From: an uncultured Planctomycetia bacterium
Lineage (GTDB): Bacteria; Omnitrophota; Gorgyraeia; Duberdicusellales; 4484-171
NCBI GenBank assembly: GCA_964635565.1
Contig: CAZWON010000001.1
Coordinates: forward strand, 71,020-135,019
Length of the DNA: 64,000 bases
Direction: 5' to 3'
This document shows, in pieces, positions 3,810 to 55,887 of this stretch. Position 1 is the stretch's first letter. Every line of letters begins with the position of its first letter. The notes beneath the pieces are model-generated. The model was not told where the DNA came from, did no database searches, and worked only from the letters and a program-made list of their open reading frames with translations. The position numbers and the translations under genes were made by a program.

Positions 3810-5072
3810 ATGCATAGTTTTCACTATAAAGGTAATACTCTTTATTGCGAAGAGGTAGAGGTTCAGGCAATAGTAGAGGAGTATGGAACTCCTCTTTATA
3901 TTTATAGTTACAACGCCATAATAGACCATTTCTTGAAACTGAAAAATGCTTTCCGTAAGGTTTCTCCTCTTATCTGTTATTCTGTGAAGGCGAATTCCAA
4001 CCTTTCTATTTTAAAAATAATGGTGGGAAAGGGTGCAGGTTTAGATATTGTTTCCGGAGGAGAACTCTTGCGGGCAAAGCTTGTAAACTGTTCACCAGAG
4101 AAAATAGTCTATGCTTCAGTAGGAAAAACTGAGAAGGAAATAAAAGAAGCAATTAAATTTGGCATTTTTATGTTTAATGTAGAGTCAGTCCCTGAGCTTG
4201 AAAAAATAAATGTTATTTCTCAACGGTTAAAGAAGATAGCTTGTGTGGCTTTAAGGATTAATCCACAGGTCCATCCTAAAACCCATAAGTATATTACAAC
4301 CGCTAAGAAAGAGACAAAATTCGGTATGGATATAAAGACAGCGCGGAAGATTTTTTTAAATTCTTCACATTACAAATATTTAAGAATCATTGGTATTCAT
4401 ATTCATATTGGTTCCCAGATTACTACTGCTACACCTTTTTTAAAAGCAATAAAAAAAGTAATACCCTTAATAAGGGAGTTAAGAAAAAGAAGATTCCCTA
4501 TTAATTATTTTAATATTGGCGGGGGGATGGGTATAGTATACTATAAAGAGAATTTTCAGAGCGCTTCTGCATTTGCCCAAAAAGTAATACCATTACTTAA
4601 AACTACAGGGTTAAAAGTTATTTTAGAGCCAGGAAGATTTATTGTGGGTAATGCAGGAATTTTAGTTACAAAAGTACTTTATATAAAAGATACGGTGTAT
4701 AAGAGATTTGTTGTAGTTGATTCTGCAATGAATGATTTAATTCGACCTGCTCTTTATGAAGCATATCATGAAATTATTCCTTTGAATAGAAGTCACAAAG
4801 TCACAAAGTCACAAAGTCACAAGTTAGTAGATGTGGTAGGGCCTGTATGTGAAAGTGGGGATTTTTTAGGTAAGGGGCGCAAACTTAATGTTAAGGAAGG
4901 CGATTATCTTGCAATTTTGGGTGCAGGGGCATACGGGTTTAGTATGAGTTCTAATTATAATAGTCGGCCACGAGCAGCCGAAGTTCTTATTAAAGGCAGA
5001 AAATGTTATCTTATAAGAAAAAGAGAGACCTATAAGGATTTAGTAGATAAGGAGATTATTGTAAAGATATAG
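3810..5072 (+). CDS. lysA: diaminopimelate decarboxylase
   Basis: Fold-III PLP decarboxylase. N-terminus 'VEEYGTPLYIY'. 'GGGMGI', 'EPGRFIVGNAG' and 'VVGPVCESGDFL' motifs are present. It contains an internal period-8 tandem repeat (see repeat feature). Confidence 0.9.
   Translation: MHSFHYKGNTLYCEEVEVQAIVEEYGTPLYIYSYNAIIDHFLKLKNAFRKVSPLICYSVKANSNLSILKIMVGKGAGLDIVSGGELLRAKLVNCSPEKIVYASVGKTEKEIKEAIKFGIFMFNVESVPELEKINVISQRLKKIACVALRINPQVHPKTHKYITTAKKETKFGMDIKTARKIFLNSSHYKYLRIIGIHIHIGSQITTATPFLKAIKKVIPLIRELRKRRFPINYFNIGGGMGIVYYKENFQSASAFAQKVIPLLKTTGLKVILEPGRFIVGNAGILVTKVLYIKDTVYKRFVVVDSAMNDLIRPALYEAYHEIIPLNRSHKVTKSQSHKLVDVVGPVCESGDFLGKGRKLNVKEGDYLAILGAGAYGFSMSSNYNSRPRAAEVLIKGRKCYLIRKRETYKDLVDKEIIVKI
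4790..4825. repeat. perfect tandem repeat (AAGTCACA)x4 plus partial fifth unit, inside the lysA coding sequence
   Basis: Read directly from sequence: gaAAGTCACAAAGTCACAAAGTCACAAAGTCACAagtt. The period is 8 nt, not a multiple of 3, and it encodes 'SHKVTKSQSHKL'. Confidence 0.9.
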
Positions 5073-5099
5073 AAGAAGTATTCTGTAGAGAAAAGTTAA

Positions 5100-5972
5100 A
5101 TGGGAAAAGAAAAGAGGGTGGAGTTTTTTAAATTGCAAGCGTCAGGTAACGATTTTATCTTAATAGATAATCTTAAAAAGAATATTTCTTCCTTTCAATT
5201 GAGGAAATTAGCAAAAGATTTTTGCCAGAGAAAATTTGGGGTTGGGGCAGACGGTCTTTTAGTAATTGAGCTTTCTAAGAAGTACGATTTTAGAATGCAT
5301 ATATTCAACCCTGATGGGTCAGAGGCAGAAATGTGTGGGAATGGTGCGCGTTGCGTTGGTTTATGGGCAGAAATAGCCCTGGGGAAGAATTATGTGAAAT
5401 TTGATACTAAAGCAGGAGCTATAGAGGTAGAAATAGAGAAGGGTTCTTTAAAAAGAGATAAGATTAGTATGGGAGAATATAAACGAGTGCGAATAAAGAT
5501 GAGTGAACCACGGGGATTACGTCTTGATTTTCCTGTAAGGGTTTCCAAGCGGTTAATTAAAGTAAATTGTATAAATACAGGGGTTCCTCATATAGTTGTT
5601 TTTGTAGAAGGGCTGGATAAAATTGATATAGAGAGAATCGGTAGAAAACTGCGATTTCATAAGGCGTTTATGCCTGCAGGGACGAATGTTGACTTTGTTG
5701 AAGTGGTAGATGATGAGTTCATAAAAATACGTACCTATGAAAGGGGTGTGGAGGCAGAAACTTTTGCCTGTGGAACGGGTGTTGTAGCGTCAGCAATTGT
5801 TACGGGTTGTAAAATCATAAAATCACAAAGTCACAGATATAAATTTGATGTCTTAACGAGAAGCGGTGATATATTACAAGTTTATTTCACAAAAGATGGT
5901 AGTAAAATAAGTGATGTGTGGCTTAAGGGGAAAGCGTATTTTGTGTATAAGGGACAGCTTAACGCAGATTAA
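5100..5972 (+). CDS. dapF: diaminopimelate epimerase
   Basis: 'ASGNDFILID' N-terminal motif. Catalytic 'CGNGARC' and a second Cys motif 'ACGTGVVAS' are present. ~290 aa. Confidence 0.9.
   Translation: MGKEKRVEFFKLQASGNDFILIDNLKKNISSFQLRKLAKDFCQRKFGVGADGLLVIELSKKYDFRMHIFNPDGSEAEMCGNGARCVGLWAEIALGKNYVKFDTKAGAIEVEIEKGSLKRDKISMGEYKRVRIKMSEPRGLRLDFPVRVSKRLIKVNCINTGVPHIVVFVEGLDKIDIERIGRKLRFHKAFMPAGTNVDFVEVVDDEFIKIRTYERGVEAETFACGTGVVASAIVTGCKIIKSQSHRYKFDVLTRSGDILQVYFTKDGSKISDVWLKGKAYFVYKGQLNAD
5812..5835. repeat. degenerate period-8 tandem repeat (AAATCATA / AAATCACA / AAGTCACA) inside dapF
   Basis: Same 8-mer family as the lysA repeat. It encodes 'IKSQSHRY', sharing the 'KSQSH' peptide with the lysA insert. 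Confidence 0.7.
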
Positions 5973-6096
5973 CAGTAAGGATATACAGATTATCGCAGAC
6001 AATAAAATAAAAAAAGTAAAATTATCAATTAACATTTTAAAATGTTCTTTTCAATCTTAATCGTTAACTTTTCATCGCTAATTTTGAATTTGTAAT

Positions 6097-6138
6097 AAAT
6101 CTGTGTTAATCTGTTATAAATCAGCGGTAATCTGTGTA
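6097..6138 (+). promoter_or_regulatory. three direct repeats of TAATCTGT(G/T)T immediately upstream of the dapA RBS; candidate operator/regulator binding array
   Basis: Copies begin at about 6097, 6108 and 6129, with spacings of 11 and 21 nt. They end 4 nt before the 'aaggagg' RBS (6142-6148). Confidence 0.3.
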
Positions 6139-6152
6139 TAAAGAAGGAGGTA

Positions 6153-7034
6153 GTGATGTTTTCAGGAAGTATTCCTGCTTTAGTTACTCCTTTTAAGAGA
6201 GACGGTAGTATCGATGAAGAACGCCTGCGTTTTCTTATTAACTGGCATATTAAAAACAGAAGTGATGCTATTTTAGTATGTGGAACCACAGGAGAAAGTG
6301 CTACTTTGTCTCACCAGGAGCATAAACATATAGTAAAAATAGCTACAGAAGAAGCAAGAAGACGCATTCCTATTATTGCGGGGGCAGGGTCGAATTCTAC
6401 CGAGGAAGCATTGGATTTGGCACATTTTGCCAAGAAGGTAAAAGCTGATGCCATCTTGGTGATTACTCCTTATTACAATAAGCCAACACAGGAAGGATTG
6501 TACCAGCATTATAAAAAAATATCACGAGAAGTTAAGATACCCCTTATTGTTTACAATGTTCCTTCCCGGACAGGGACTAACATTTTACCACAGACGGTAG
6601 CACGTCTCTATAAAGATTGTAAAACAGTTATTGGAATAAAGGAAGCCAGTGGTTCTTTAGACCAGATAACGAAGCTTATGACTCTTGTGGATAGGAGGTT
6701 TGTTCTTCTTTCAGGAAGTGATGAAATAACCTTACCTATTCTTTCTATAGGAGGTAAAGGTGTAATTTCTGTTGTAGCAAATATAATGCCTCGCCAGACT
6801 CATGATCTTGTTGCAAGTTTCTTAAAAGGAAATATTGAGAAAGCAAGAAAGTTACAACTTTATCTTTACCCCTTAATTAAAATACTTTTTATAGAGACTA
6901 ATCCTATCCCTGTTAAGACAGCTTTAGGTCTTATGGGACTTATTGAGCCAAACTTACGGCTTCCTCTCTATAGGATGAATAAGGAAAACTTTAAAAAACT
7001 TAAGGCAATTATTAAGAAGTACAATCTCAGTTAA
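6153..7034 (+). CDS. dapA: 4-hydroxy-tetrahydrodipicolinate synthase
   Basis: 'ALVTPF...DG.ID', 'GTTGES', the 'YNVPSRTG' motif and the Schiff-base lysine region 'IGIKEASG' are all present. Confidence 0.9.
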   Translation: MMFSGSIPALVTPFKRDGSIDEERLRFLINWHIKNRSDAILVCGTTGESATLSHQEHKHIVKIATEEARRRIPIIAGAGSNSTEEALDLAHFAKKVKADAILVITPYYNKPTQEGLYQHYKKISREVKIPLIVYNVPSRTGTNILPQTVARLYKDCKTVIGIKEASGSLDQITKLMTLVDRRFVLLSGSDEITLPILSIGGKGVISVVANIMPRQTHDLVASFLKGNIEKARKLQLYLYPLIKILFIETNPIPVKTALGLMGLIEPNLRLPLYRMNKENFKKLKAIIKKYNLS

Positions 7035-7067
7035 CCCTTTTTTCTACTAATATAAAATTGATTTCAT

Positions 7068-8459
7068 ATGGAAGATATTAAATTGTCAATAATAATCCCT
7101 GTATATAATGAGATAAATACTGTTTTAGAAATAATAAGATTAGTGAAAGAAGAGAGACATAAAAAAGAGATTATAGTTGTTGATGATTGCTCTACGGATG
7201 GGACACACGAGGTACTAAAACAGATTGAAGAAGAGAACATTAGAGTTTTATTCAATGATGTTAATAGAGGCAAAGGTTATGGGATAAGAAAGGCATTAAA
7301 GTATGTGGCAGGGGATATTGTAATTATTCAAGATGCAGACCTTGAATATTATCCTGATGAGTATGGGATTTTAATAGAAAAAATTATTCAAAATAAAGCG
7401 GACGTTGTTTATGGGAGCAGATTTATAGGGGGTGCACACCGTGTATTTAATTTCTATCATTACATAGGGAACTTGGTTATTAATACAATTGCTAATATTT
7501 TCTTGAATGCCAATTTTACAGATTTAATGACTTGCTATAAAGCATTTAGAAGCGATGTATTGAAGAGTTTAAAACTGGAAGCAAATGGATTTGGGATAGA
7601 AACAGAGATTACTGCAGAGGTTTTTAAAAGAAGATATAGAGTATATGAGGTGCCTATTTCTTATAACGGCAGAACCTATGAAGAGGGGAAGAAAATAAGA
7701 TGGACAGATTTCTTTACGTGTTTGTATTGGCTTCTAAGATCGATAATTAGAGGGGTTGATTTAGGAGAAGACACATTATTGAAGACGATAATTATGAAAA
7801 ACAATAACTGGTGGGTTTATAAAAAAATTGAACCTTTTTTAGGGAAGAAAATATTAGAATTAGGTTCTGGTATAGGAGCAATATCGAAATACCTGGTGAA
7901 AAAAAATAGAAAAGTAACTCTTACTGATATTAATAAAAAATATACCACATATTTAAAAAGAAGATTTGTTGGCAATCCTCACGTAGAAGTTAAGAATATA
8001 GATATTTTAAACATAGATACTGTGTTTTCTGAGGGAGAGTTTGATACTATTATAGGAATAAATATTTTAGAACATATAGAGCACGATATAGAATCTATTA
8101 AGAAATTAAAAAAGGTACTTATTAAAGAAGGAAATCTCATACTATTGGTTCCTGCTCATAAAAGTTTGTTCGGGAAATTGGATAGCAAATTGGGCCATTT
8201 TCGGAGATACTCAAGGGATGAGTTAAAAACCAAGCTTAAAAATGAAGGTTTTTATATAGAAAGAATAGAATTTATGAATTTTTTAGGAGCAGTAGGATGG
8301 TTTATAAATTTCAAACTTTTAAGAAGAGAAAGAATGTCAAAATTAGTAATTCAGATTTTTGATGGGACCATACCGGTTATTGCTTTTATAGAGAGATTTT
8401 TAAAATTTCCTTTTGGACTTTATCTGTTATGTATTGCAAAAAATAAATTAGATTTTTAG
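7068..8459 (+). CDS. fusion protein: N-terminal GT2 polyprenyl-phosphate sugar synthase-like glycosyltransferase (DPM1/ArnC/GtrB-like) + C-terminal class I SAM-dependent methyltransferase domain
   Basis: N-terminus 'LSIIIPVYNE...VVDDCSTDGT...DADLEY' is GT-A/GT2. C-terminus 'ILELGSGIGAIS...VTLTDIN...NILEHIEHD' is the SAM motif I plus post-I acidic residue and motif III. 463 aa total. Confidence 0.75.
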   Translation: MEDIKLSIIIPVYNEINTVLEIIRLVKEERHKKEIIVVDDCSTDGTHEVLKQIEEENIRVLFNDVNRGKGYGIRKALKYVAGDIVIIQDADLEYYPDEYGILIEKIIQNKADVVYGSRFIGGAHRVFNFYHYIGNLVINTIANIFLNANFTDLMTCYKAFRSDVLKSLKLEANGFGIETEITAEVFKRRYRVYEVPISYNGRTYEEGKKIRWTDFFTCLYWLLRSIIRGVDLGEDTLLKTIIMKNNNWWVYKKIEPFLGKKILELGSGIGAISKYLVKKNRKVTLTDINKKYTTYLKRRFVGNPHVEVKNIDILNIDTVFSEGEFDTIIGINILEHIEHDIESIKKLKKVLIKEGNLILLVPAHKSLFGKLDSKLGHFRRYSRDELKTKLKNEGFYIERIEFMNFLGAVGWFINFKLLRRERMSKLVIQIFDGTIPVIAFIERFLKFPFGLYLLCIAKNKLDF

Positions 8460-8699
8460 ATATACTCCTTTCATTTTAAATATTTTTCCCTCTACATAAA
8501 ATATTATAGGCTTTGTTCTTTACCTAGTGATTTCATTCTAAGGTAAAGATAATAAACAATCTAACACGGGAAGAATAAAGAATATACAATTTTCTTGATG
8601 ATAAGAAGCTGTTTGTTATTTTAAATCTATAATTTTATGTTACAATATTTAAAATAATATATTTTACTCATAATAGATGAATTAACTTAATAAAAAGTA

Positions 8700-9580
8700 A
8701 TGAATGAGAAAGAATGTGTATTGTGTGGCTCAACAGAAATAAAAATAATCTTTTCTTCTCCCCTAAATAATACAAAAAAGATAGAACAATTTGGTTTTTC
8801 ACCTACTGTCTCCGATTTTGGTGTTTTTTATAAGCTAGCACAGTGTCAGGAATGCGGAGTGGTATTTTCTTTACTAGATAATCAAGATTTAACTTTATCA
8901 TACTCAGCCTCTAATGATGATTTATATTTAAATCAAGCTTTAGAGAGGACAGTTACTTATAAGCGTATATTGCGAGATATTAAAAAATTTGTTTCTGATA
9001 ATGCTTGTTTTTTAGATGTTGGATGTTCTTATGGATTATTGCTAAAGTTAGCTAAAGAAGTTGGTTCTAAAGTTTATGGAGTTGAGCTAAGCGAAAATGC
9101 TTGCAGATATGCAAGAGAAAAATTAGGGTTAAATGTTGTATGCGCAGATGTAGCAGAGATTAAATTTTCTAATAATTATTTCGATGTAATTACAGCTATA
9201 GAAATAATTGAACATTTAAGTAATCCTAAAAATTTTATACTCCATATGTATAAAATATTAAAACCGGGGGGATATTATATTTAGTGACTCCTAACCTAAG
9301 AAGCCTTTCGGCAAAGATTTTTGGATACCAGTGGTGGTTTTACAGAAGAATGTATTTATATTATTTTTCTGACAGTGCGCTTCAGAATTTTTTAAATAGA
9401 AATGGATTTTTAGTAATATCTGCTAAACCCTATAAGAAAACTTTTAAGATTAATTACATACTGCGTCAACTTTCTAAATCTAAAATAAATAAAATATTTT
9501 ACAATATACTCAATAAAATAGTTAATTTCTTGAGGGTTAGGAACTTATATTTACAGGTAGTTTTGGCGATGTCGTTATGA
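8700..9580 (+). CDS. class I SAM-dependent methyltransferase with N-terminal CxxC..CxxC zinc-ribbon; reading frame interrupted by an apparent -1 frameshift in a G6 homopolymer (9265-9270)
   Basis: ORF 8700..9284 ends '...LKPGGYYI*'. ORF 9284..9580 continues 'VTPNLRSL...' in the -1 frame. Re-reading one G gives 'LKPGGILYLVTPN', the canonical methyltransferase 'LKPGG.L...TPN' post-motif II/III. 'LDVGCSYG' is SAM motif I. Confidence 0.6.
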
Positions 9581-9602
9581 TAGCAAAAAAGATATAGGCA
9601 TA

Positions 9603-10820
9603 TTGATGAATTGGAAACTAGTACGATGGATAGATATTTATATAGGAATACCTCTGGTATATTTAATATTTCTTATAAAGAAAATATTCAGATTATCTAA
9701 CATTTCTTCAGAAGAATATAATAATCTTTTGTTTATTAAATTTTGGGGTATAGGTAATATCATTATGATTTTACCTGCAGCGAGTGCATTAAAGAAGAAG
9801 TATAAAAATGCAAATATAGACTTATTAACTTTAACAAACAATAAGGATGCTTCTCGTTCTGCAGGGATTTTTAGGGATATTTATACTATAGATACAACCC
9901 ATATAGTTAAATTTCTTATTACCTCTATAAGGACATTTAAAATATTGATTAAGAAAGATTATGATGTAATAGTTGACTTTGAACAGTTCGCAAGGTTTTC
10001 AGCAATATGGTGTGCTCTTATAGGAAGAAAAAAAACTGTGGGGTTTAATACTAAAGGGCAACATCGCTTTATATTATATACAAATCCTACTGTCTATAGA
10101 GACGACATTCATATTACAAAATCTTTTTATAGTTTAGTAGAGTCTTTGGGAGTTCTTGCTATAGACGAGATAGAGCCTTTTCCTTTAAACTGCCATGATC
10201 ATTGTATTAGGACGGTAAGAAGCATATTATCTAAGGAAGGAGTTTTTCCTGAAGATATTATAATTATTCTTCATGTAGGAACAAGTAAGAATTTTGCACT
10301 TAGACGCTGGCCCTTTGAGCATTTTGCTGAATTATCTGACAGATTAATAAATAATTTTGACGTAAAGATAATTTTTACAGGATTGACAGAAGAAAAGGTT
10401 TTAATAGAAAGAGTTTTTGCAATGATAAAGAATAAAAAAGGAGCAATTAATCTAAGTGGAAAGTTTAATTTTGAAGAATTTATAGCCTTAATTAGACTAA
10501 GTGACTTAGTTGTCTCAGCTGATACCGCCCCTGTTCATATTGCTACTTCTTTGGGAGTCCCTGTAGTAGGACTTTATGGCCCAAACACCCCCTTTCTATA
10601 TGGACCATGGGGTAAGAAGAGTATATGGTTTTATAGACAATTAGAGTGTGCTCCTTGCATAACAAATTATAATGCTAAAATAAACAAATGTGGGCATCCC
10701 GAAGGTCAAGGGGCATGTATGAGAAAGATTAGCCCAGATGAGGTATTTTTGGGAATAGTTACTAATTACTTTGACGAAAAATCACCTTTTAGGTTGGAGA
10801 AGTTGAAAGTAAATGCGTAG
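9603..10820 (+). CDS. glycosyltransferase family 9 (LPS heptosyltransferase-like), with N-terminal TM segment and Cys-rich C-terminal tail
   Basis: The GT9 donor-binding region 'ADTAPVHIATSLGVPVVGLYGPNTP' matches the RfaF/RfaC-type 'DSGPMHLA..G.P.V.LFGPT'. The C-terminus 'CAPC...KCGHPEGQGAC' is cysteine-rich. Confidence 0.7.
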   Translation: MMNWKLVRWIDIYIGIPLVYLIFLIKKIFRLSNISSEEYNNLLFIKFWGIGNIIMILPAASALKKKYKNANIDLLTLTNNKDASRSAGIFRDIYTIDTTHIVKFLITSIRTFKILIKKDYDVIVDFEQFARFSAIWCALIGRKKTVGFNTKGQHRFILYTNPTVYRDDIHITKSFYSLVESLGVLAIDEIEPFPLNCHDHCIRTVRSILSKEGVFPEDIIIILHVGTSKNFALRRWPFEHFAELSDRLINNFDVKIIFTGLTEEKVLIERVFAMIKNKKGAINLSGKFNFEEFIALIRLSDLVVSADTAPVHIATSLGVPVVGLYGPNTPFLYGPWGKKSIWFYRQLECAPCITNYNAKINKCGHPEGQGACMRKISPDEVFLGIVTNYFDEKSPFRLEKLKVNA

Positions 10821-11877
10821 ATTGATAGGATTAGCAAAGAATATACTCGTTAGTAATTTTACCGATTTAAGGTATCCCTATAGATTTACTTATATTTTAA
10901 CCTACCGATGTAATCTTAGATGTAATATGTGTAATATTTGGCAAGAACATAAGGAAGAAGAGCTATCCGTCGCTCAGATAAAGAAGTTTTTTAAAAATTT
11001 TTGCAAATTTTCGTGGATTAATGTAAGTGGGGGAGAAATATTTTTAAGAGAAGATTTGTTAGATATTTTTGATATTATTCTCACAACTTGCAAAGATCTG
11101 TATCTTTTAGATTTTCCTACGAATGGTTTCCAGACCAAACTTATTCTTGAGGTAATAAACAGGTTGTTAGTTAATTATAAGATACCCAAGATATTAGTCA
11201 CTATCAGTTTAGATGGTCCGCAAAAGTTACATGATCAGATACGGGGAGTTGAGGGTTCTTGGGATAGAGCTGTGGAAACTTTCAGGCAATTACGTAAATT
11301 AAGAAGTGCAAGGTTTAATGTATTTTTCGGCACTACCTTACAGCCAGCGAATATAGGAAAATTTGATGAGACAGTTAAATCTGTAGAAGAAAAAATTGGT
11401 AATATCCGTTATAATGACTTCCATGTAAATTTAATTCAGTATTCCCCTCATTATTATAAAAATATAGATACATCAGATTCTAATGATTATGATAAATTAT
11501 GGCCTCAGTTAGAAAGAATTATTAGAAGACGTAAGATTTTTTTGTTTAGCCCTATTGGTTTTCTTGAATATGAATATCAGAAATTAGCCAGAATTTATTT
11601 ATCAGAAAAAAAGACGCCTATTACTTGTCAGGCTTTTTCCGCATCTTTTTTTATGGATCCAGAGGGTAATATTTTTCCTTGTAGTATATATAATAAGTCT
11701 ATAGGTAATATCGTTGACTTTGATTATGATATAAATAAGATGTGGGATACTGTTTCTAGATATAGAATAAGAGAAGAGATTCGCAAGCAAAAGTGCCCTC
11801 AATGTTGGACACCTTGTGAAGCATATCAAAGTATTTTGGCTAATTTATTTGTTGTCTTTAAAAGGGGTAGACTATGA
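10813..11877 (+). CDS. radical SAM enzyme with C-terminal SPASM/twitch-like Cys-rich domain
   Basis: Radical-SAM cluster 'YRCNLRCNMCNIW' (CxxxCxxC). Glycine-rich 'SGGEIFL' SAM-binding motif. C-terminal Cys cluster 'CQAF..FPCS...KCPQCWTPCEAY'. Confidence 0.8.
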   Translation: MRRLIGLAKNILVSNFTDLRYPYRFTYILTYRCNLRCNMCNIWQEHKEEELSVAQIKKFFKNFCKFSWINVSGGEIFLREDLLDIFDIILTTCKDLYLLDFPTNGFQTKLILEVINRLLVNYKIPKILVTISLDGPQKLHDQIRGVEGSWDRAVETFRQLRKLRSARFNVFFGTTLQPANIGKFDETVKSVEEKIGNIRYNDFHVNLIQYSPHYYKNIDTSDSNDYDKLWPQLERIIRRRKIFLFSPIGFLEYEYQKLARIYLSEKKTPITCQAFSASFFMDPEGNIFPCSIYNKSIGNIVDFDYDINKMWDTVSRYRIREEIRKQKCPQCWTPCEAYQSILANLFVVFKRGRL

Positions 11878-12974
11878 TTAGAAAAGTCTATATTGATTTT
11901 ATAAAAAATAAAGTTGTTGAAGGAAAGTGGGATTGGTTTTTTAAAAGATTCTGGCAATACTTTATTATTCATATTTCTTTTATTGCGGGTCGGCCTTTCT
12001 GTGGTCCGATTTTAGGTACTTTTGTTGTTAATTATCGATGTAACTATAAGTGTAAAATGTGTGATTTGCCATTGAGAGATAAGTTTATCCAAAAGCAGGG
12101 GTTAAAAGAATTCTCAACCTTACAGTTAAAAAAAATTCTTAAGGAATTTGCAAGCTTGGGGACAGCGGGTATAGGTTTTACAGGAGGAGAGCCACTTTTA
12201 CGAGAAGATATATTTGAGCTTATGAAGTATTCAAAGGAATTAGGTATGATTACTCACTTAAATACTAATGGGTTTTTCCTTGATAGCGAAAATATCAAAA
12301 GGCTTCTATATGCTAATGTTGACTCTATAAATATTTCTTTAGATGGAGCCTATGCTTCTACTCACGATGCAATTAGAGGTTATCGGGGGGCATTTGATAG
12401 GGTAGTTTATGCTGTAGAGTGTATTGATTTCATGCGAAAGAAAATGGGTGTTCCTATACGCGTGAAAGTAGTGACTGTAATAGGTAAAGATAATATCGAT
12501 GAGATACCCGATTTGTTTAAACTAGCTCATAGTTTAAAAGTAGACTGTATTGAGTTTATCCCACAACAGCCTTTTTCTGTTTTGACAGATGATACTCCTG
12601 TGAATTTTGATAATATTTTTTTAGAAAAGATAGATACAGTGGTTGATTATATTTTGAAGGAGGGGAAGAAGATAGTAAGGGTAGAAAATTCACCTCGTCA
12701 TTTAAAATTATTTAAGAATTCTTTTGGGGGTGAAAAGTCACCCCTTATTTGTTTTGCGGGATATAATTCTTATGCTGTGGATTGCTATGGTCAAATTTTT
12801 CCCTGTATGCCATGGGTTAATTGGGGGAAATCCGTGGGAAATGTAAAAGAGAGTTCCCTTAAGAAATTTTGGTATTCAGCAATGTATAATAAGATACGGC
12901 GTGATATTTCAAAGTGCAGAGATTGTTATCTGAATTGTCAGGCAGAGTTAAATATTTTGTTTAATATAATTTAA
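11874..12974 (+). CDS. radical SAM enzyme with C-terminal SPASM-like domain (paralog of the upstream gene), with a hydrophobic N-terminal extension
   Basis: 'YRCNYKCKMCDL' (CxxxCxxC). 'TGGEPLL'. C-terminal 'CFAGYNSYAVDCYGQIFPC...CRDCYLNCQ'. Start overlaps upstream stop (ATGA). Confidence 0.8.
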   Translation: MIRKVYIDFIKNKVVEGKWDWFFKRFWQYFIIHISFIAGRPFCGPILGTFVVNYRCNYKCKMCDLPLRDKFIQKQGLKEFSTLQLKKILKEFASLGTAGIGFTGGEPLLREDIFELMKYSKELGMITHLNTNGFFLDSENIKRLLYANVDSINISLDGAYASTHDAIRGYRGAFDRVVYAVECIDFMRKKMGVPIRVKVVTVIGKDNIDEIPDLFKLAHSLKVDCIEFIPQQPFSVLTDDTPVNFDNIFLEKIDTVVDYILKEGKKIVRVENSPRHLKLFKNSFGGEKSPLICFAGYNSYAVDCYGQIFPCMPWVNWGKSVGNVKESSLKKFWYSAMYNKIRRDISKCRDCYLNCQAELNILFNII

Positions 12975-13012
12975 AAAAGAGTTTAATTATTTTATAGAGG
13001 TTAAATTAATTA

Positions 13013-14821
13013 ATGAAGAATAAAAAAAACCTTTTTCTTCGTTCTACAATACCATTACCATTCTGTATTATAAGTGCAGTTTTTTTATATTTTCTTGCTT
13101 TAAGCTGGTTAAAATGGGGCAACCCTGTTGTCGATACTTTTAGAGACCAGTGGGTAGCTTATAACTTAACTGTAGGAAAAACTTTATATAAAGATATTTT
13201 TTACCATTATGGTTTTTTAGCGCCTTATTCTATTTCTTTTTTGTATAAAATATTTGGTGTAAATATAATATACTCAGTTTTTTTAGGGATATTTATTACT
13301 GGTTTTTCCTGTTATTTTCTTTATAAACTTTCTCGCCTTTTTCTTAATAGGGCATTTTCTACAGTTCTTTTATTAAACTTTCTTTTAGTTTTTGCTTTTG
13401 GATGTTATTGTTCTAACTGTATTTTTAATTTTATATTACCTTATAGTTTTTCTTCTACTTTTCTTATAATGTTTATTCTTTCTTCACTATACTTCTATAT
13501 TAAATTTATAAGAAAAAAGCACTATAGATATTTGGTCTTTTGGGCGCTTTCTATATATTTTGTTTTTTTATCTCGTGTAGATTTTGGTGTTTTTATTTGG
13601 TTAGTATTTGTTGCGATTTTTATAGGATGTATCCCCAAAGAAAGAAAATCGAAGGTTATTATATATATGTTTATTCCTTTTTTGATGAGTTTATTGTCTT
13701 ACTGGCTATTTTTATATCTTAATAATGCCTTTTTTTATTTCCGTGAATCTATAATTAATATGATTTCTTTCTGTTTAGAAGGAGGGAATAAGTTTGATTA
13801 TATTATCTCAGGGTTTGATAATCTTTCTTATAATTTAAAAAATATTATTATCTCTTTTTTTTCTCAGTTTATAATAGCTTTTCTATTTTATTTAATGAGT
13901 GTTGTAATACATATTTTCCTTAAAAGAACAACAATAAAATTATTTCCTCTTTTATTATATACTATATTAGGAATAGTTTCGTTTAGAGTTACTTTTCTTT
14001 TTGTCGGAGTTGTTAACTTTTTCCTTCAATACAGATTAATACCTCTAGTGCTTCTTGGGGGAATAATGATATATATTTTTAGGTTATTTTTTAGTAAAGA
14101 AAAAGAGAAGATTTCTTCATATTTAGTTTTATTTGTTATTTCACTTTTGCTTATATTAAGGATAATATTTCTTGCTTCTCCTAATGGGTATGGTTTTTTT
14201 CTTTTAGTTCCCAGTTTAGTCTGTTATTATATTTTCTTTAAAGATATATGTTTTCCTTTGTTTACCTTTATCATAAGAGTTGCAATTAATAAAAATGTAA
14301 AACGCTATTATCTGTTTTCTGTTTCTATTTTCTTTGTTTTACTGTCTTTGTTATTTGCCAGATTTAATTATGAGAGTTATAGTATGAAAAAATGCTCTAT
14401 TTTTACTCCGAGGGGAAATTTGTATTTTTTCTGCACGCCCTGCACGCAGAGATTCTGGGAAACGGTTTATTTTTTAAGAAAGCATACTGCTAAGAATGCA
14501 AAAGTTGTTGTTTTCCCCGAAGGAATAGGAATAAATTTTTTTTCTCAAAGAGATAACCCTTTACGGTATCATACTTTTCTTCCTCCTATAGTCAGAATTG
14601 TTACGGAAAATAAAATAATAAAGAACTTAAATAAATACAAAATAGATTATATAATAATACTTTCCAGAGCTACATATGAATATGGATATCCTTTTTTTGG
14701 TATTCACTATGGGGAAAATATTTATCATTGGATATTAAATAATTATGAACTTATTAAAGTCTTTGGTCCTTATCCTTTTACTTCTTTAGAATTTGGGGTG
14801 GCGATATTTAAGAGAAAATAA
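13013..14821 (+). CDS. polytopic (~13 TM) integral membrane protein with C-terminal soluble domain; GT-C-fold glycosyltransferase-like (ArnT/PMT/oligosaccharyltransferase-type) candidate
   Basis: Translation is very hydrophobic with many predicted helices. The first extracytoplasmic loop after TM1 carries an acidic 'VVDTFRDQW' motif, the usual position of the GT-C catalytic D/E. A ~130 aa non-hydrophobic C-terminal domain follows. Fold assignment is inference. Confidence 0.45.
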   Translation: MKNKKNLFLRSTIPLPFCIISAVFLYFLALSWLKWGNPVVDTFRDQWVAYNLTVGKTLYKDIFYHYGFLAPYSISFLYKIFGVNIIYSVFLGIFITGFSCYFLYKLSRLFLNRAFSTVLLLNFLLVFAFGCYCSNCIFNFILPYSFSSTFLIMFILSSLYFYIKFIRKKHYRYLVFWALSIYFVFLSRVDFGVFIWLVFVAIFIGCIPKERKSKVIIYMFIPFLMSLLSYWLFLYLNNAFFYFRESIINMISFCLEGGNKFDYIISGFDNLSYNLKNIIISFFSQFIIAFLFYLMSVVIHIFLKRTTIKLFPLLLYTILGIVSFRVTFLFVGVVNFFLQYRLIPLVLLGGIMIYIFRLFFSKEKEKISSYLVLFVISLLLILRIIFLASPNGYGFFLLVPSLVCYYIFFKDICFPLFTFIIRVAINKNVKRYYLFSVSIFFVLLSLLFARFNYESYSMKKCSIFTPRGNLYFFCTPCTQRFWETVYFLRKHTAKNAKVVVFPEGIGINFFSQRDNPLRYHTFLPPIVRIVTENKIIKNLNKYKIDYIIILSRATYEYGYPFFGIHYGENIYHWILNNYELIKVFGPYPFTSLEFGVAIFKRK

Positions 14822-14854
14822 AATTTGTTATAATATTAAGAGAAAGGGGTAAAG

Positions 14855-15580
14855 ATGTTAAGAGCAGGGATAAGTGGTATTTGTGGGAGAATGGGAAGGA
14901 GAATTCTTAATTTGAGTAAAAAAGATAAAGATATTGAAGTTGTTATAGGGTTAGAAAAAACTGGCCATAAGGATGTAGGAAATATAGTTGAAGGGGTAAA
15001 AGTCACAGATAAATTAATAGAATTAGAAAGGTGCGATTGCCTCATTGAATTTTCTACGCCCACTGCTACTTTAGAACATCTTAGATATTTAGTTACATTA
15101 AAAAAAACAGCAGTAGTAGGGACAACAGGTTTTAGTGACGATGAGGCTGATGAGGTAAAAAGAATAGCAGAAAAGATTCCTATAGTATTTTCTCCTAATA
15201 TGAGCATTGGTGTTAACTTAGTTTTTCGTCTGGTGAAAGAAGCAGCAAAAGTATTAAAAGAGTATGAGGTTTATATTGAAGAGGCTCATCATATTCATAA
15301 AAAAGATGCCCCTAGCGGAACCGCCAAAAAAATAGCAAATATTATAAATAGTGAGGGTTTCAGCATAAAGACAGAAGATATTGTTTCTATTCGTGAAGAT
15401 GAGATTGTAGGTGACCATAGCGTTATCTTTAAGAGCACATTAGATGAGATTGAACTTTCCCATTCCGCAAAGACACGTGATATATTTGCTCAAGGAGCAA
15501 TTGTAGCAGCAAAATGGATAAAAGATAAAAAGAAAGGCCTTTACTCTATGGAGGATGTACTTTTTGGAAGGGATTCATAA
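14855..15580 (+). CDS. dapB: 4-hydroxy-tetrahydrodipicolinate reductase
   Basis: N-terminal Rossmann 'GISGICGRMGRR'. Signature 'EAHHIHKKDAPSGTA'. ~240 aa. Confidence 0.85.
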   Translation: MLRAGISGICGRMGRRILNLSKKDKDIEVVIGLEKTGHKDVGNIVEGVKVTDKLIELERCDCLIEFSTPTATLEHLRYLVTLKKTAVVGTTGFSDDEADEVKRIAEKIPIVFSPNMSIGVNLVFRLVKEAAKVLKEYEVYIEEAHHIHKKDAPSGTAKKIANIINSEGFSIKTEDIVSIREDEIVGDHSVIFKSTLDEIELSHSAKTRDIFAQGAIVAAKWIKDKKKGLYSMEDVLFGRDS

Positions 15581-15606
15581 ATCTCTTTAAGATAAAGAGG
15601 AGGGAT

Positions 15607-16764
15607 ATGAAAAAGAAAAAATTACTTTTATCACAACGATTACAGAGATTACCTCCTTATCTTTTTGCTCAAATTGAACGTAAGAAACAAAAGTTAAGAA
15701 AAAGAAGGGTTGTGCTAAAAGATTTAAGTATAGGTGATCCGGATATTTTAGCTCCTTGGGGGGTAATCAACACTCTTTATAGGTCCGCTAAACAAAAAGA
15801 TAATCAGAAGTATGCTTTAGACCAGGGCAAAGAAAATTTAAGAAATTCTATAAAAAAATGGATGAAAAAAAGATTCGGAATTAATTTAGATAAGGAAAGA
15901 GAAATTTTACCTTTAATTGGTTCCAAAGAAGGATTAGTACATTTACCATTAGCATTTGTTAATCCCGGCGAGTATGTTCTTGTTCCTTCTCCTGGTTATC
16001 CTGGTTATAGAGGAGCTGTGGTTTTAGCTTTAGGGAAAATTTATGAGATGCCCCTAAGAGAAGATAATAATTTTTTACCCTCTTTAGAGAAGATACCGTT
16101 GGGGATAAGAAATAAAAGTAAACTTATGTATTTAAATTATCCTAATAATCCTACAACTGCTTTAGCGCCTCGTGAGTTCTTAAAAGAAGTGGTTAAGTTC
16201 TGCTCTCATTATGGTATTATTCTTGCTTACGATAATGCCTATTCAGAAATTTACTTTGAGAGAAAACCTTTAAGTATCTTTCAGATAAAAGGAGCTGAAG
16301 AAATAGCTATTGAGTTTCACTCTTTTTCCAAGACCTTTTGTATGACAGGCTTTCGTATTGGTTGGGCTTCTGGTAACAAAGGTTTGATTAAGTGTCTCTT
16401 GAAAATAAAGACGAATATTGATTCAGGAATTTTTGGTGCCATTCAGGATGCAGGAGCTTATGCCTTAGATAAAGAGAAAGGGTATGTTAGAAACTTAAGA
16501 AAGATTATTAGAGAAAGAAGAGATTTTTTTGTTAAAGGGTTAAATCAGAAAGGATTTAAGAAGATATACGCTTATAGCACTTTCTATGTATGGGTGAAGA
16601 TACCTCTATCTTTTAAATCTTCTATGGATTTTTCCCATTATCTTTTAAATAAAAAAATTGTTGCCACGCCAGGAATAGGTTTTGGTAAATATGGTGAAGG
16701 ATTTGTAAGATTTGCTCTTACAGTAGATATTACCGAACTAAAAGAAGCAATTAGAAGGATATAG
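15607..16764 (+). CDS. class I/II PLP aminotransferase, probable LL-diaminopimelate aminotransferase (DapL-type) given dap context
   Basis: N-terminus 'LQRLPPYLFAQIERKK'. PLP-lysine region 'FHSFSKTFCMTGFRIGWA'. It sits directly after dapB in the lysine block. Assignment to DapL rather than a general Asp/Ala aminotransferase rests on context. Confidence 0.55.
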   Translation: MKKKKLLLSQRLQRLPPYLFAQIERKKQKLRKRRVVLKDLSIGDPDILAPWGVINTLYRSAKQKDNQKYALDQGKENLRNSIKKWMKKRFGINLDKEREILPLIGSKEGLVHLPLAFVNPGEYVLVPSPGYPGYRGAVVLALGKIYEMPLREDNNFLPSLEKIPLGIRNKSKLMYLNYPNNPTTALAPREFLKEVVKFCSHYGIILAYDNAYSEIYFERKPLSIFQIKGAEEIAIEFHSFSKTFCMTGFRIGWASGNKGLIKCLLKIKTNIDSGIFGAIQDAGAYALDKEKGYVRNLRKIIRERRDFFVKGLNQKGFKKIYAYSTFYVWVKIPLSFKSSMDFSHYLLNKKIVATPGIGFGKYGEGFVRFALTVDITELKEAIRRI

Positions 16765-16853: not shown

Positions 16854-17315
16854 ATGAGAAAAAAAGTGGCATTCATTTCATTAGGGTCTAATTTAGGAGA
16901 CCGAAGAGAAAATCTGAAAAAAGCTCTTGAATATATGGAGGCACATCCAGAGATAACTATCGAGAAGGTTTCTTCATTTATTGAGAGCAAACCTGTTGGC
17001 GGACCACCTCAGGGTGACTATCTTAACGGTGTAGTTAAAATAAACACAACGCTTTCTCCTTATGAGCTTCTTTCTACTCTTAAAGATATAGAGAAAAAAC
17101 TCGGACGAAAAAGAACAATAAGATTTGGACCACGTACAATTGATTTGGATATTCTTTTGTATAGAAAAGAGGTTATAGATGAGGATACATTGAAGATTCC
17201 TCATCCCCGTATGTTTGAACGTGAGTTCGTTTTAAAGCCTCTTTTTGAGATAGAACCGGAAATGAGAAAGTTTATTTGTAATTTTAAGAAAACACAAATA
17301 CGGTCTAGAAAATAA
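16854..17315 (+). CDS. folK: 2-amino-4-hydroxy-6-hydroxymethyldihydropteridine pyrophosphokinase (HPPK)
   Basis: 'AFISLGSNLGDR' and 'FGPRTIDLDILLY' motifs. ~150 aa. Confidence 0.85.
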   Translation: MRKKVAFISLGSNLGDRRENLKKALEYMEAHPEITIEKVSSFIESKPVGGPPQGDYLNGVVKINTTLSPYELLSTLKDIEKKLGRKRTIRFGPRTIDLDILLYRKEVIDEDTLKIPHPRMFEREFVLKPLFEIEPEMRKFICNFKKTQIRSRK

Positions 17316-18160
17316 TGATTGTTTTAAGGAATGTAAAAAAAGTAAGAGAAATTATCAATAAAGTTAAAAAAAGAGGAGATACAGTAGGGTTTATTCCTAC
17401 TATGGGGGCGCTTCATGAGGGGCATATTTCTTTAATTAAAGAAGCAAAGAAAAATACCAGCTTCGTAGTGGTAAGTATTTTTGTCAATCCTACCCAGTTT
17501 GGGCCGCATGAAGATTATAGAAAATATCCTCGTAATTTCAAAAAAGACAAGGAAATTCTTAAACAAGAAGGGGTAGATTTAATTTTTTATCCCAATGTAA
17601 AAGCGATGTACAGTAAGAAATTTTCTACCTATGTAGAGGAAATAGAATTAAGTAAATATCTCTGTGGGAAGCGCCGTCCAGGGCATTTTAAAGGCGTATG
17701 TACTATTGTCGCTAAACTATTTAATATTGTATTACCTGACATCGCTTATTTTGGGCAGAAGGATTATCAACAGGCAGTGATTATAAAGAGGATGGTTAAG
17801 GATTTGAACTTTTCTCTCAAAATAAAAGTTATGCCTATTGTAAGGGAGAAAGATGGTTTGGCTTTAAGCTCAAGAAATACATACCTTACTTCCCATCAAC
17901 GCAAAGAGGCTTTATCTTTATACCATGCCTTAAAATTAGCCTATAGGATGGTAAAAAATAAAAAACAGCCTCCCACAATCATTAAGGCTATGCAGAAACT
18001 AATAAAAAAAGAGGCACCTTCTTCAAAAATTGACTATATAAACATTGTGGATCCTTTTACCTTGCAAGATGTAAGGAAGATAGAAAAAAGAGTGTTAGTA
18101 GCTTTAGCTATATATATAGGAAAGGCACGTTTAATCGACAATATGTTAATAAAAAGATGA
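17315..18160 (+). CDS. panC: pantoate--beta-alanine ligase
   Basis: 'GFIPTMGALHEGHISL' HIGH-type motif. 'FGQKDYQQ'. ~280 aa. Confidence 0.9.
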   Translation: MIVLRNVKKVREIINKVKKRGDTVGFIPTMGALHEGHISLIKEAKKNTSFVVVSIFVNPTQFGPHEDYRKYPRNFKKDKEILKQEGVDLIFYPNVKAMYSKKFSTYVEEIELSKYLCGKRRPGHFKGVCTIVAKLFNIVLPDIAYFGQKDYQQAVIIKRMVKDLNFSLKIKVMPIVREKDGLALSSRNTYLTSHQRKEALSLYHALKLAYRMVKNKKQPPTIIKAMQKLIKKEAPSSKIDYINIVDPFTLQDVRKIEKRVLVALAIYIGKARLIDNMLIKR

Positions 18161-55734: not shown

Positions 55735-55887
55735 ATGAGAGAATTGATTGCTTTACAATGTACTGTTTGTAAAGGAAAAAATTATTATACTACCAAGAAT
55801 AAAAGAAAACATTCAGGTAAGTTTACTATAAATAAGTTTTGTAAATTTTGCCGTAAATATTCTTCGCATAAAGAGGCAAAGCCATAA
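55735..55887 (+). CDS. rpmG: 50S ribosomal protein L33
   Basis: Not in the ORF track because it is only 50 aa. Translation 'MRELIALQCTVCKGKNYYTTKNKRKHSGKFTINKFCKFCRKYSSHKEAKP' has the L33 C-x2-C ... C-x2-C zinc ribbon. It lies between tRNA-Thr and tRNA-Trp, as in the conserved locus. Confidence 0.8.
   Translation: MRELIALQCTVCKGKNYYTTKNKRKHSGKFTINKFCKFCRKYSSHKEAKP

Follow-up and report, generated by a model that had tools for sequence, protein, structure and literature searches.

What do two adjacent radical S-adenosylmethionine (SAM) enzymes act on when the genes around them encode glycosyltransferases and no peptide substrate can be recognized nearby? This question is raised by a stretch of DNA of 64,000 nucleotides, here called the window, from an uncultured Planctomycetia bacterium (GTDB phylum Omnitrophota; GenBank assembly GCA_964635565.1, contig CAZWON010000001.1, positions 71,020 to 135,019 of the forward strand). 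The two genes, termed R1 and R2, had been described in an initial annotation as tandem paralogs that lack a precursor peptide. Our analysis leads us to consider that both are probably radical tailoring enzymes for the sugar of a surface-glycosylation module composed of GT2, GT9 and GT-C glycosyltransferases, rather than peptide maturases. The two genes are as follows.

10813-11877, + strand: R1, 354 amino acids, ATG start; radical-SAM enzyme whose SPASM domain is abbreviated and twitch-like, the central member of a widespread family that is still uncharacterised
11874-12974, + strand: R2, 366 amino acids, ATG start; paralogous radical-SAM/twitch-like enzyme, an accessory partner found in GT9-type loci only

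Both open reading frames (ORFs) lie exactly where the initial annotation had placed them (10813-12974), and each of the CxxxCxxC, GGE and C-terminal cysteine strings that it quoted is present. The first 8 nucleotides of R1 are also the last 8 of the upstream GT9 gene, R1 and R2 overlap by 4 nucleotides (ATGA) and are translationally coupled, and 38 nucleotides separate R2 from the next gene (13013-14821). The cluster motif CNLRCNMC occupies residues 33-40 of R1 (C33/C37/C40), and its counterpart CNYKCKMC occupies residues 56-63 of R2 (C56/C60/C63). These are followed by SGGEIFL in R1 (GGE at 73-75) and by TGGEPLL in R2 (GGE at 104-106). Residues 327-338 of R1 read KCPQCWTPCEAY, and the C-terminal segment of R2 reads CFAGY...DCYGQIFPC...CRDCYLNCQ. 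The Pfam Radical_SAM model (PF04055) matches R1 with an E-value of 1.3e-12 (48.7 bits against a threshold of 29.5) and R2 with 5.5e-23 (82.4 bits), and the Pfam SPASM model matches R2 with 41.9 bits and R1 with 22.4 bits, which is marginal against its cutoff of 21.5. By these scores, the motif and domain matches of both proteins are far above chance. R1 and R2 share 29% identity over 345 amino acids (E = 6e-29), and a profile-profile comparison gives a probability of 99.9% (E = 1e-33); on this alignment evidence the two are paralogs along their full length.

Compared with the closest relative (locus L005, 84-85% amino acid identity), the ratio of nonsynonymous to synonymous differences (pN/pS) is 0.17 for R1, 0.15 for R2 and 0.20 for the GT9 gene. 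Because these values fall at 0.15-0.20, all three are functional genes under purifying selection. The start that yields 354 amino acids for R1 is backed by conservation from residue 1, with N15 and P22 invariant. A database gene call (P0001, 316 amino acids) aligns to only 89% of R1; its start presumably is internal to R1 and would cost part of the cluster motif.

No NCBIfam model, including those for every named SPASM subfamily, reaches its cutoff with R1 or R2. The best match of R1 is TIGR03961, the archaeal PTO1314 family whose function is also unknown, and the alignment is nearly full length (R1 residues 21-335 against model positions 21-302 of 332). However, the scores of 80.1 bits for R1 and 91.8 bits for R2 against a cutoff of 306 show that neither is a member. 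For R2, the scores are 120 bits for AhbD (cutoff 500), 113 for PqqE (cutoff 381), 101 for NirJ (cutoff 515) and 95 for MftC (cutoff 265). Other named models score 91 for AhbC (cutoff 650), 62 for AlbA (cutoff 850) and 68 for PapB (cutoff 340), and the SkfB, StsB and WgkB equivalogs likewise fail to reach their cutoffs. Thus, the comparison with curated subfamilies that had been proposed places R1 and R2 in none of them. Some homologs are named ‘heme b synthase’ or ‘Fe-coproporphyrin III synthase’ in databases, and at such levels of sequence similarity these names are over-annotations. A mycofactocin-like reading, suggested by weak matches to MftC, MftF and MftM, was rejected on the basis of scores far under cutoff and of the lack of MftA, MftB, MftD and MftE genes.

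The cysteine pattern is more informative, and was assessed with 74 R1 homologs from genome loci and 33 R2 homologs. Eight cysteines of R1 are invariant in 74 of 74 sequences (C33/C37/C40, C272, C290, C328, C331 and C335). The C-terminal ones are arranged as C272-x12-G285-x4-C290 and then C328-x2-C331-x3-C335, with no cysteine thereafter. In R2, C56/C60/C63, C293, C311, C348 and C351 are invariant in 33 of 33 sequences, and C355, C304 and C43 are conserved in at least 90%. Its C-terminal arrangement is C293-x12-G306-x4-C311, then C348-x2-C351-x3-C355. The canonical SPASM motif, CX9-15GX4C...CX2CX5CX3C...C, has seven cysteines and binds two auxiliary clusters (PMC5715301), whereas a twitch domain is without the CX2CX5CX3C block and binds one cluster (PMC5715301, PMC9012708). 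R1 has five of the seven motif cysteines and R2 has four to five, so the twitch-like part of the earlier description stands for both proteins and the full SPASM part does not, even though the Pfam SPASM model still matches. The sequence pattern of both is that of a shortened SPASM with cysteines for one auxiliary cluster. These cysteines would be enough to ligate one auxiliary cluster fully, as in BtrN, and would leave one cysteine to spare. Most likely, R1 and R2 each carry a SAM-cleaving [4Fe-4S] cluster and one auxiliary [4Fe-4S] cluster in the twitch-like domain.

Structure models made with AF2 have predicted local distance difference test (pLDDT) values of 94.4 for R1 and 92.4 for R2. The radical-SAM core begins at about residue 25 in R1 and about residue 47 in R2, and it is preceded in the R2 model by an N-terminal extension of 45 residues that forms two conserved helices. 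This extension had been called hydrophobic and suggestive of membrane association. Its maximum 19-residue Kyte-Doolittle hydropathy of 1.47 is below the transmembrane threshold, however, and no transmembrane helix is predicted. A hydrophobic N-terminal helix is found instead in the GT9 protein (hydropathy 1.9 at residues 6-25).

Invariant residues of R1 that do not belong to a cluster motif include H140, H204, N206, S211, H213, Y214, Y215, N217, E252 and Y255. A sugar or phosphate ligand would suit this set of polar residues better than a hydrocarbon would. Searches of the PDB by sequence and with Foldseek returned generic radical-SAM, SPASM and twitch neighbours and no decisive template. The Foldseek neighbours are SkfB, BlsE, SuiB, anSME, DesII, EpeE, viperin and BtrN, with template modelling (TM) scores of 0.4-0.7 and identities of 12-24%. 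The sugar-acting twitch enzymes BlsE, DesII and BtrN are thus among them.

There are hundreds of homologs each of R1 and R2 at 45-65% identity, and the closest named relatives of the window proteins come from metagenome-assembled genomes (MAGs) of Omnitrophota. A pattern scan with one genome per species found 466 loci that encode R1 relatives. The best 80 of these 466 loci come from Omnitrophota, Nitrospirota, Geobacterales, Desulfobacterota, Planctomycetota, Ignavibacteria, Acidobacteriota, Elusimicrobia, Verrucomicrobiota and Gemmatimonadota, from the candidate phyla radiation (CPR; Parcubacteria and Gottesmanbacteria), and from the archaeal groups Methanosarcinales, Woesearchaeota, Altiarchaeota and Nanobdellati. 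When 1.84 billion cluster representatives were searched with a profile, 1870 matches had E-values of 1e-30 or better. The top 150 of these matches all have E-values below 1e-73 and represent at least 150 clusters at 50% identity. By homology, R1 stands at the centre of a large family, still uncharacterised, that spans more than 10 bacterial phyla, CPR and archaea.

ORFs were called and clustered in the window and in 81 of 84 loci (three duplicates were skipped), and all counts given below refer to the 74 loci that carry R1. A same-strand GT9, GT2 or GT-C gene directly adjoins R1 in 56 of them, and many of the loci without glycosyltransferase neighbours are short contigs. Within four genes of R1 there is a polytopic GT-C-like protein in 58 loci, a GT2 or GT9 in 56 (GT9 in 34, GT2 in 29), a B12-binding radical-SAM protein in 21, a carbamoyltransferase in 14 and an epimerase or dehydratase of the short-chain dehydrogenase/reductase (SDR) family in 6. 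An orthologous GT9 gene is located directly upstream of R1 in 30 loci. The coupling to glycosyltransferases that the initial annotation proposed for the window is therefore an adjacency kept across bacteria and archaea, and it is reinforced by gene fusions. The initial annotation had also treated the tandem pair as the unit. The pair is indeed present in the window, but the conserved unit is R1, as R2 lies within four genes of it in 28 loci and always together with GT9.

Closer relatives (at least 45% identity) have the order GT9-R1-R2 followed by a polytopic membrane protein, often with a C-terminal TPR tail, and genes for B12-binding radical-SAM proteins are often nearby. This order is present in Geobacter sp. 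AOG1 and in Nitrospirota. The more distant relatives (38-45% identity), including those from archaea and a Gottesmanbacteria locus, are mostly without R2 and usually without GT9. In these, R1 is found beside a GT2 of about 225 amino acids, a GT-C of the PMT_2 type and often a carbamoyltransferase. The best matches of these GT2 proteins are the lipid-phosphate-sugar synthases AglJ, Dol-P-hexose transferase, PpgS and ArnC (137-150 bits, the window GT2 included, all under the equivalog cutoffs). Further PMT_2 proteins are encoded directly after R2 in one locus (L012) and three times in another (L081), a member of GT87, another GT-C family, begins 2 nucleotides after R1 in an archaeon, and another GT2 overlaps the R1 start in an Elusimicrobia genome. 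Characterised PMT_2 and GT87 members use polyprenyl-phosphate-sugar donors.

Several other arrangements recur at these loci. A third, divergent radical-SAM protein of about 325-390 amino acids, weakly similar to R2, is encoded directly or one to two genes upstream of GT9 in nine loci (L003, L027, L036, L054, L058, L061, L070, L082 and L084), giving the order radical-SAM-GT9-R1(-R2). In five loci of Nitrospirota/Thermodesulfovibrio type (L018, L020, L026, L028 and L030; L026 is labelled Geobacter), a ccsA-like gene for cytochrome c assembly flanks GT9-R1(-R2). All of these except L026 also have a resB/ccsB-like gene (read from sequence), a small PMT_2 protein of about 425 amino acids and an unannotated protein of 200 amino acids. 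This order recurs, although it is largely confined to Nitrospirota. In four archaeal loci (L042, L044, L069 and L071), an NPCBM-associated/CARDB protein of about 270 amino acids is encoded beside GT2, directly upstream of it in the first three. Both of its ends are hydrophobic, with a stretch at the N-terminus and a tail at the C-terminus (read from sequence), and three of the four modules also hold a carbamoyltransferase and a GT-C, which is of the GT87 type in L044. This protein is a candidate for an acceptor glycoprotein.

In the window itself, R1 and R2 are part of a six-gene cassette (7068-14821), whose other members are listed here.

7068-8459, + strand: GT2-methyltransferase fusion, with the GT2 at residues 7-167 and a class I SAM methyltransferase at about 258-398
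8700-9580, + strand: Zn-ribbon plus class I methyltransferase, in two ORFs (8700-9284 and 9284-9580) with a 1-nucleotide frameshift at about 9281-9284
9603-10820, + strand: GT9-family (heptosyltransferase-like, GT-B) glycosyltransferase (Pfam Glyco_transf_9, E = 1.4e-29)
13013-14821, + strand: polytopic membrane protein, probably of GT-C fold, 602 amino acids with 12 hydrophobic segments

The first of these genes matches the Pfam models Glycos_transf_2 (E = 1.7e-35) and Methyltransf_11 (E = 1.7e-10). The best NCBIfam matches of its GT2 part are AglJ (137 bits), Dol-P hexose transferase and PpgS, all under cutoff, and by sequence it resembles polyprenyl-phosphate hexose synthases. The GT9 protein scores 99 bits against the NCBIfam heptosyltransferase II model, whose cutoff is 134.6, and the thresholds for the lipopolysaccharide (LPS) equivalogs WaaC/WaaF/WaaQ are not reached.

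The 602-amino-acid membrane protein has no direct Pfam match, and models built from the GT-C neighbour clusters miss it. However, a BLAST comparison with a protein of 645 amino acids from locus L009 gives 24.5% identity over about 600 amino acids (E = 1.7e-38), and this latter protein carries PMT_2 (40.7 bits against a cutoff of 26.1). The window protein also occupies the slot after R2 that is held by PMT_2 in L012 or by the TPR-tailed polytopic protein in the Geobacter and Nitrospirota loci. Through this transitive homology it is plausibly a GT-C glycosyltransferase. Of the neighbours named in the initial annotation, GT2, GT9 and methyltransferase are therefore recognized directly, and GT-C by transitive homology only.

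The second gene of the cassette is interrupted. Its first ORF (8700-9284) matches Methyltransf_11 (E = 2.5e-21), and the frameshift is in a run of T residues (9270-9290), where the sequence ...GGATATTATATTTAGTGACTCCTAAC is translated as GGYYI followed by a stop; one added base would restore GGYYILVTPN. The joined protein (8700-9580) matches an intact stretch of 259 amino acids in locus L010 (44% identity) and the C-terminal half of a GT9-methyltransferase fusion in L036. The gene was not detected in the closest relative L005, which has a gap of 600 base pairs at this position. Either the gene is decaying in this lineage or an assembly error has affected it.

A scan of the window for promoters and terminators gave the same counts as in shuffled sequences, and Rfam and tRNA scans revealed nothing relevant. 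Judging from translations, the cassette is inserted within a string of lysine/diaminopimelate genes (window 3810-16764), with the order lysA-like (3810), dapF-like (5100), dapA-like (6153), cassette, dapB-like (14855) and aminotransferase (15607). On the downstream side of the cassette, locus L005 appears to have the same gene order. Almost all ORFs of 150 amino acids or more in the window are on the + strand, and the GC skew is uniformly positive (0.15-0.33). Two large non-overlapped ORFs on the minus strand (35438-36523 and 36530-37426) coincide with the sole dip in GC skew, to 0.04.

Gene fusions tie some of these functions together physically. In a protein of 595 amino acids (P0294), R1 (residues 6-349) is fused to a GT2 (residues 377-532). 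The GT2 half shares 43-53% identity with the stand-alone GT2 of about 225 amino acids found in the R1 neighbourhood of 19 loci, and 26.5% (E = 1.5e-20) with the GT2 part of the window fusion at 7068-8459. Identical P0294 proteins are encoded on contigs from four metagenome samples, so the fusion is not a sequencing accident. In an archaeal fusion protein (L052), GT9 carries another radical-SAM domain at its N-terminus, an Omnitrophota protein (L036) has GT9 fused to a methyltransferase of the type found at window 8700-9580, and L027 encodes a GT2-GT9 fusion. Taken together, these fusions tie radical-SAM enzyme, GT2, GT9 and methyltransferase into one pathway. By comparison, apparent long R1 fusions of 446-715 amino acids in five high-GC loci (L029, L032, L057, L068 and L080) are artefacts of calling ORFs from the most upstream start. 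A further protein, P0504 (L089/L090, 10001-11482; 6.5-Mb genome), has R1 joined to a C-terminal ILEI/PANDER-like domain, but it was set aside as uninformative given its faint GT1 matches and transposase/integrase flanks.

The P0294 gene (L085-L088) is located beside folK (HPPK), panB and panC in L085 and L086. Genes that resemble folK and panC (read from translations) are also found 2-3 kb downstream of the window cassette (16854-18160). This may reflect shared ancestry or coincidence.

One alternative to sugar tailoring is that R1 and R2 modify the lipid part, such as a polyprenyl chain or the tail of a membrane lipid, by C-C coupling, cyclisation or methylation in the manner of Tes/GDGT-MAS, Grs and Gms. 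The cassette products are membrane-associated, the family is present in archaea and in anaerobic bacteria, and chemistry at inert lipid carbons is usually the work of radical-SAM enzymes (PMC13459092). There is also weak similarity to tetraether synthase, with R2 reaching 69 bits against NF045702 and an E-value of 1.6e-9 with PDB entry 7tol, and the R1 profile an E-value of 4.8e-4 with the same entry. However, this similarity is limited to the generic radical-SAM core (residues ~46-236), and the known lipid enzymes are larger and have a full SPASM domain with two auxiliary clusters. In addition, the invariant non-cluster residues of R1 are the polar ones noted above, and the genes conserved around R1 encode glycosyltransferases and enzymes that tailor sugars, not enzymes of lipid synthesis. 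We consider action on the lipid to be unlikely.

A second alternative is that R1 and R2 are maturases of a ribosomally synthesized peptide or of a protein, of the sactipeptide, ranthipeptide or anSME type, whose substrate is encoded elsewhere in the genome or is a surface protein or glycosyltransferase of the cluster. Most characterised SPASM enzymes do act on peptides or proteins (PMC5715301, PMC9012708), and SkfB, SuiB and anSME are among the best structure or sequence matches, although anSME is a generic fold match (TM ~0.57, 15-18% identity). Against this stand the scores of every peptide-maturase equivalog, which are far under cutoff, and the R1-GT2 and radical-SAM-GT9 fusions, which are unlike maturase-substrate pairs.

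A precursor peptide was sought among intergenic ORFs of 18-119 amino acids, within about 5 kb on the upstream side of R1 and 6 kb on the downstream side. The 74 loci contain 747 such ORFs, and no small-ORF family is common to them; sharing was seen only between near-identical Ignavibacteriales genomes. Throughout the 64-kb window there is no Cys- or Gly-rich intergenic small ORF other than an rpmG-like gene (55735-55887; identity read from sequence) and ORFs that overlap tRNAs. The two small ORFs considered by the initial annotation lie wholly inside genes, one (11602-11829, minus strand) in R1 and the other (13540-13722, plus strand) in that of the membrane protein. Its view that no precursor is encoded nearby is borne out by these searches. 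Likewise, no sulfatase family was found among the conserved neighbour clusters, of which the larger ones were annotated with Pfam, and no RRE or PqqD domain was matched by Pfam in R1, R2 or the cassette proteins.

Two archaeal contexts point the other way. A Peptidase_C39-like gene (L069, 11159-12031, from a Methanosarcinales MAG) is located 124 nucleotides downstream of R1, as the gene directly after it and the sole peptide-processing-type gene found beside R1, and the CARDB/NPCBM-associated surface protein is encoded upstream in archaeal loci. On balance, a maturase role strikes us as quite improbable.

It is scarcely credible that R1 and R2 are cofactor enzymes (AhbC/AhbD/NirJ-like tetrapyrrole or MoaA-like) that are merely adjacent to glycosylation genes: the top NCBIfam matches of R2 are AhbD (120 bits), PqqE, NirJ and MoaA, some homologs bear the tetrapyrrole names given above, and in Nitrospirota GT9-R1-R2 has ccsA and resB-like genes of cytochrome c biogenesis on its flanks, but the scores are 4- to 5-fold under the equivalog cutoffs, the cassette has no other ahb, nir or moa genes, the ccsA/resB context occurs in one phylum whereas GT9/GT2/GT-C adjacency is pan-phylum, and the fusion partners are glycosyltransferases.

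The proposal that R1 and R2 tailor a sugar of the glycosylation module, which follows the initial suggestion of a sugar or glycoconjugate substrate, is supported by this lack of peptide logic together with the conserved glycosyltransferase link. Several observations nevertheless weigh against it. The R1-GT2 fusion occurs in one lineage, and P0294 is the sole fusion of its kind in the top 120 matches. No flippase, either small and GtrA-like with four transmembrane segments or of the MATE type, was found among the ORFs at 7068-14821. The labels GT2, GT9 and GT-C are below equivalog cutoffs or transitive. The Foldseek matches are generic (TM 0.55-0.71), with the peptide-modifying enzymes SkfB, SuiB and anSME scoring equal to the sugar enzymes. 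Dehydrogenase or epimerase chemistry is weakly supported, because DegT-family aminotransferases are found in 2 and SDR proteins in 6 of the 74 loci. Finally, the whole case is one of guilt by association, built on comparative genomics.

From the genes, motifs, family, synteny and fusions described above, we infer a substrate, an order of steps and a chemistry for sugar tailoring by R1 and R2. Both enzymes would be cytoplasmic, and would work with a GT2 like the polyprenyl-phosphate-sugar synthases, a membrane-anchored GT9 and a polytopic GT-C. The GT2 (and the GT9) would load or extend a sugar on its carrier. In R1, the 5'-deoxyadenosyl radical would take a hydrogen from a carbon of this sugar, which could be lipid-linked or nucleotide-activated. 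Because of the GT2 fusion and the GT-C partner, we lean very slightly towards the lipid-linked form.

Two outcomes can be envisioned. Perhaps the auxiliary cluster oxidises the substrate radical to give a keto-sugar, in a two-electron oxidation of the BtrN type (PMC9012708). Alternatively, the spare fifth cysteine (Cys335) might return a hydrogen to the opposite face to give an epimer. A cysteine returns the hydrogen in the epimerisations by NeoN and EpeE, and oxidation followed by transamination is the logic of BtrN and BtrS. A sugar aminotransferase of the DegT/DnrJ/EryC1 family is encoded directly after R1 in an Omnitrophota single-cell genome (L081, 10504-11739) and three genes from R1 in a Latescibacterota MAG (L078, 8602-9789). 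This neighbour, found in just 2 of 74 loci, hints that R1 may make a keto-sugar. In loci of the GT9 type, a second radical reaction would fall to R2, the methyltransferases would add methyl groups, and the GT-C would move the finished sugar to an envelope acceptor outside the cytoplasmic membrane.

The GT9 protein is unlikely to be a classical inner-core heptosyltransferase of LPS, because GT9-R1 is found in a Parcubacteria genome (L037) and the radical-SAM-GT9 fusion in an archaeon (L052). LPS production is not expected in these organisms.

By analogy, the nearest functional counterparts are BtrN, BlsE, DesII, calditol synthase and the GT-C systems, none of which is a family match. BtrN, the butirosin 2-deoxy-scyllo-inosamine dehydrogenase and prototype twitch enzyme, combines a radical-SAM core with a truncated SPASM domain as R1 and R2 do. 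Its Cys169, 187, 232 and 235, which we take to be spaced as C-x17-C...C-x2-C, represent the type of spacing seen in R1 and R2. BtrN acts on a carbohydrate-like secondary alcohol and has no peptide substrate, and a DegT-family transaminase is next in its pathway, which recalls the pairing of R1 with DegT in L081. Its auxiliary cluster has four-Cys ligation (PMC9012708). However, the sequence similarity is marginal (E ~2e-4, in the twitch region only) and the query-normalised TM score is 0.40-0.42. R1 and R2 are also about 100 residues longer, have an extra conserved cysteine (C335 in R1, C355 in R2) and are found in a GT2/GT9/GT-C context, whereas BtrN belongs to an aminoglycoside cluster.

The cytosylglucuronate decarboxylase BlsE is the best structural match of R2 (E = 2.7e-17, TM 0.64/0.71) and the second best of R1, and it is also the best PDB sequence match for R2. 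Like DesII, it performs radical chemistry on an activated (nucleoside- or nucleotide-linked) sugar. R1 and R2 share 17-22% identity with these two enzymes, and the NCBIfam model for BlsE, with a cutoff of 400, gives a score of 73.6. Furthermore, BlsE and DesII belong to actinomycete antibiotic pathways and, unlike R1 and R2, have no association with GT-C or polyprenyl phosphate.

The module as a whole is comparable to three-component extracytoplasmic glycosylation systems, such as GtrA/B/C, ArnC/ArnT or a polyprenyl-phosphoribose synthase with a flippase, a GT-C and auxiliary epimerases (Kelly et al. 2024, PMC11127046). Like these systems, the cassette appears to combine a GT2 resembling lipid-phosphate-sugar synthases with a polytopic protein, probably a GT-C, and auxiliary enzymes that would diversify the sugar ahead of its transfer. 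They differ in that no radical-SAM enzyme has been described for them, and the cassette has an extra unexplained GT9 and no recognised flippase. Radical-SAM remodelling of a lipid-attached sugar is known for the hopanoid enzyme HpnJ. The calditol synthase Cds of Sulfolobus is likewise a precedent, as a radical-SAM enzyme that rearranges a lipid-bound hexose head group (PMC13459092). Cds and HpnJ come from other taxa, with other lipid carriers and gene contexts, and are likened to R1 by description only.

In the literature searched, nothing was found that links radical-SAM enzymes to heptosyltransferases, GT-C proteins, GT2/GT-C modules, polyprenyl phosphate or lipid-linked sugars, and nothing was found on PTO1314. 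We tentatively suggest, as a possibility short of an even chance, that the R1 family catalyses an unrecognised step in bacteria and archaea, in which a hexose linked to polyprenyl phosphate or to a nucleotide is converted to a new donor sugar for surface transfer by GT-C. The product might be a keto, epimeric, amino, deoxy or carbocyclic derivative. Such a step would be an anaerobe-specific counterpart of donor tailoring of the DprE1/E2 or Arn type, common to bacteria, CPR and archaea.

There are about 165,000 known SPASM/twitch radical-SAM genes, and very few have assigned substrates (PMC9012708). The large R1 family is now tied to a concrete and testable context, that of GT2, GT9 and GT-C. 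If the sugar-tailoring role is correct, there would be grounds to drop the annotations ‘heme b synthase’ and ‘peptide maturase’ for such proteins, and radical chemistry would join the known routes by which lipid-linked sugar donors are diversified. Such a role would further suggest that uncultured anaerobes, among them Omnitrophota, Nitrospirota, CPR and DPANN-type archaea, carry a surface sugar not yet known.

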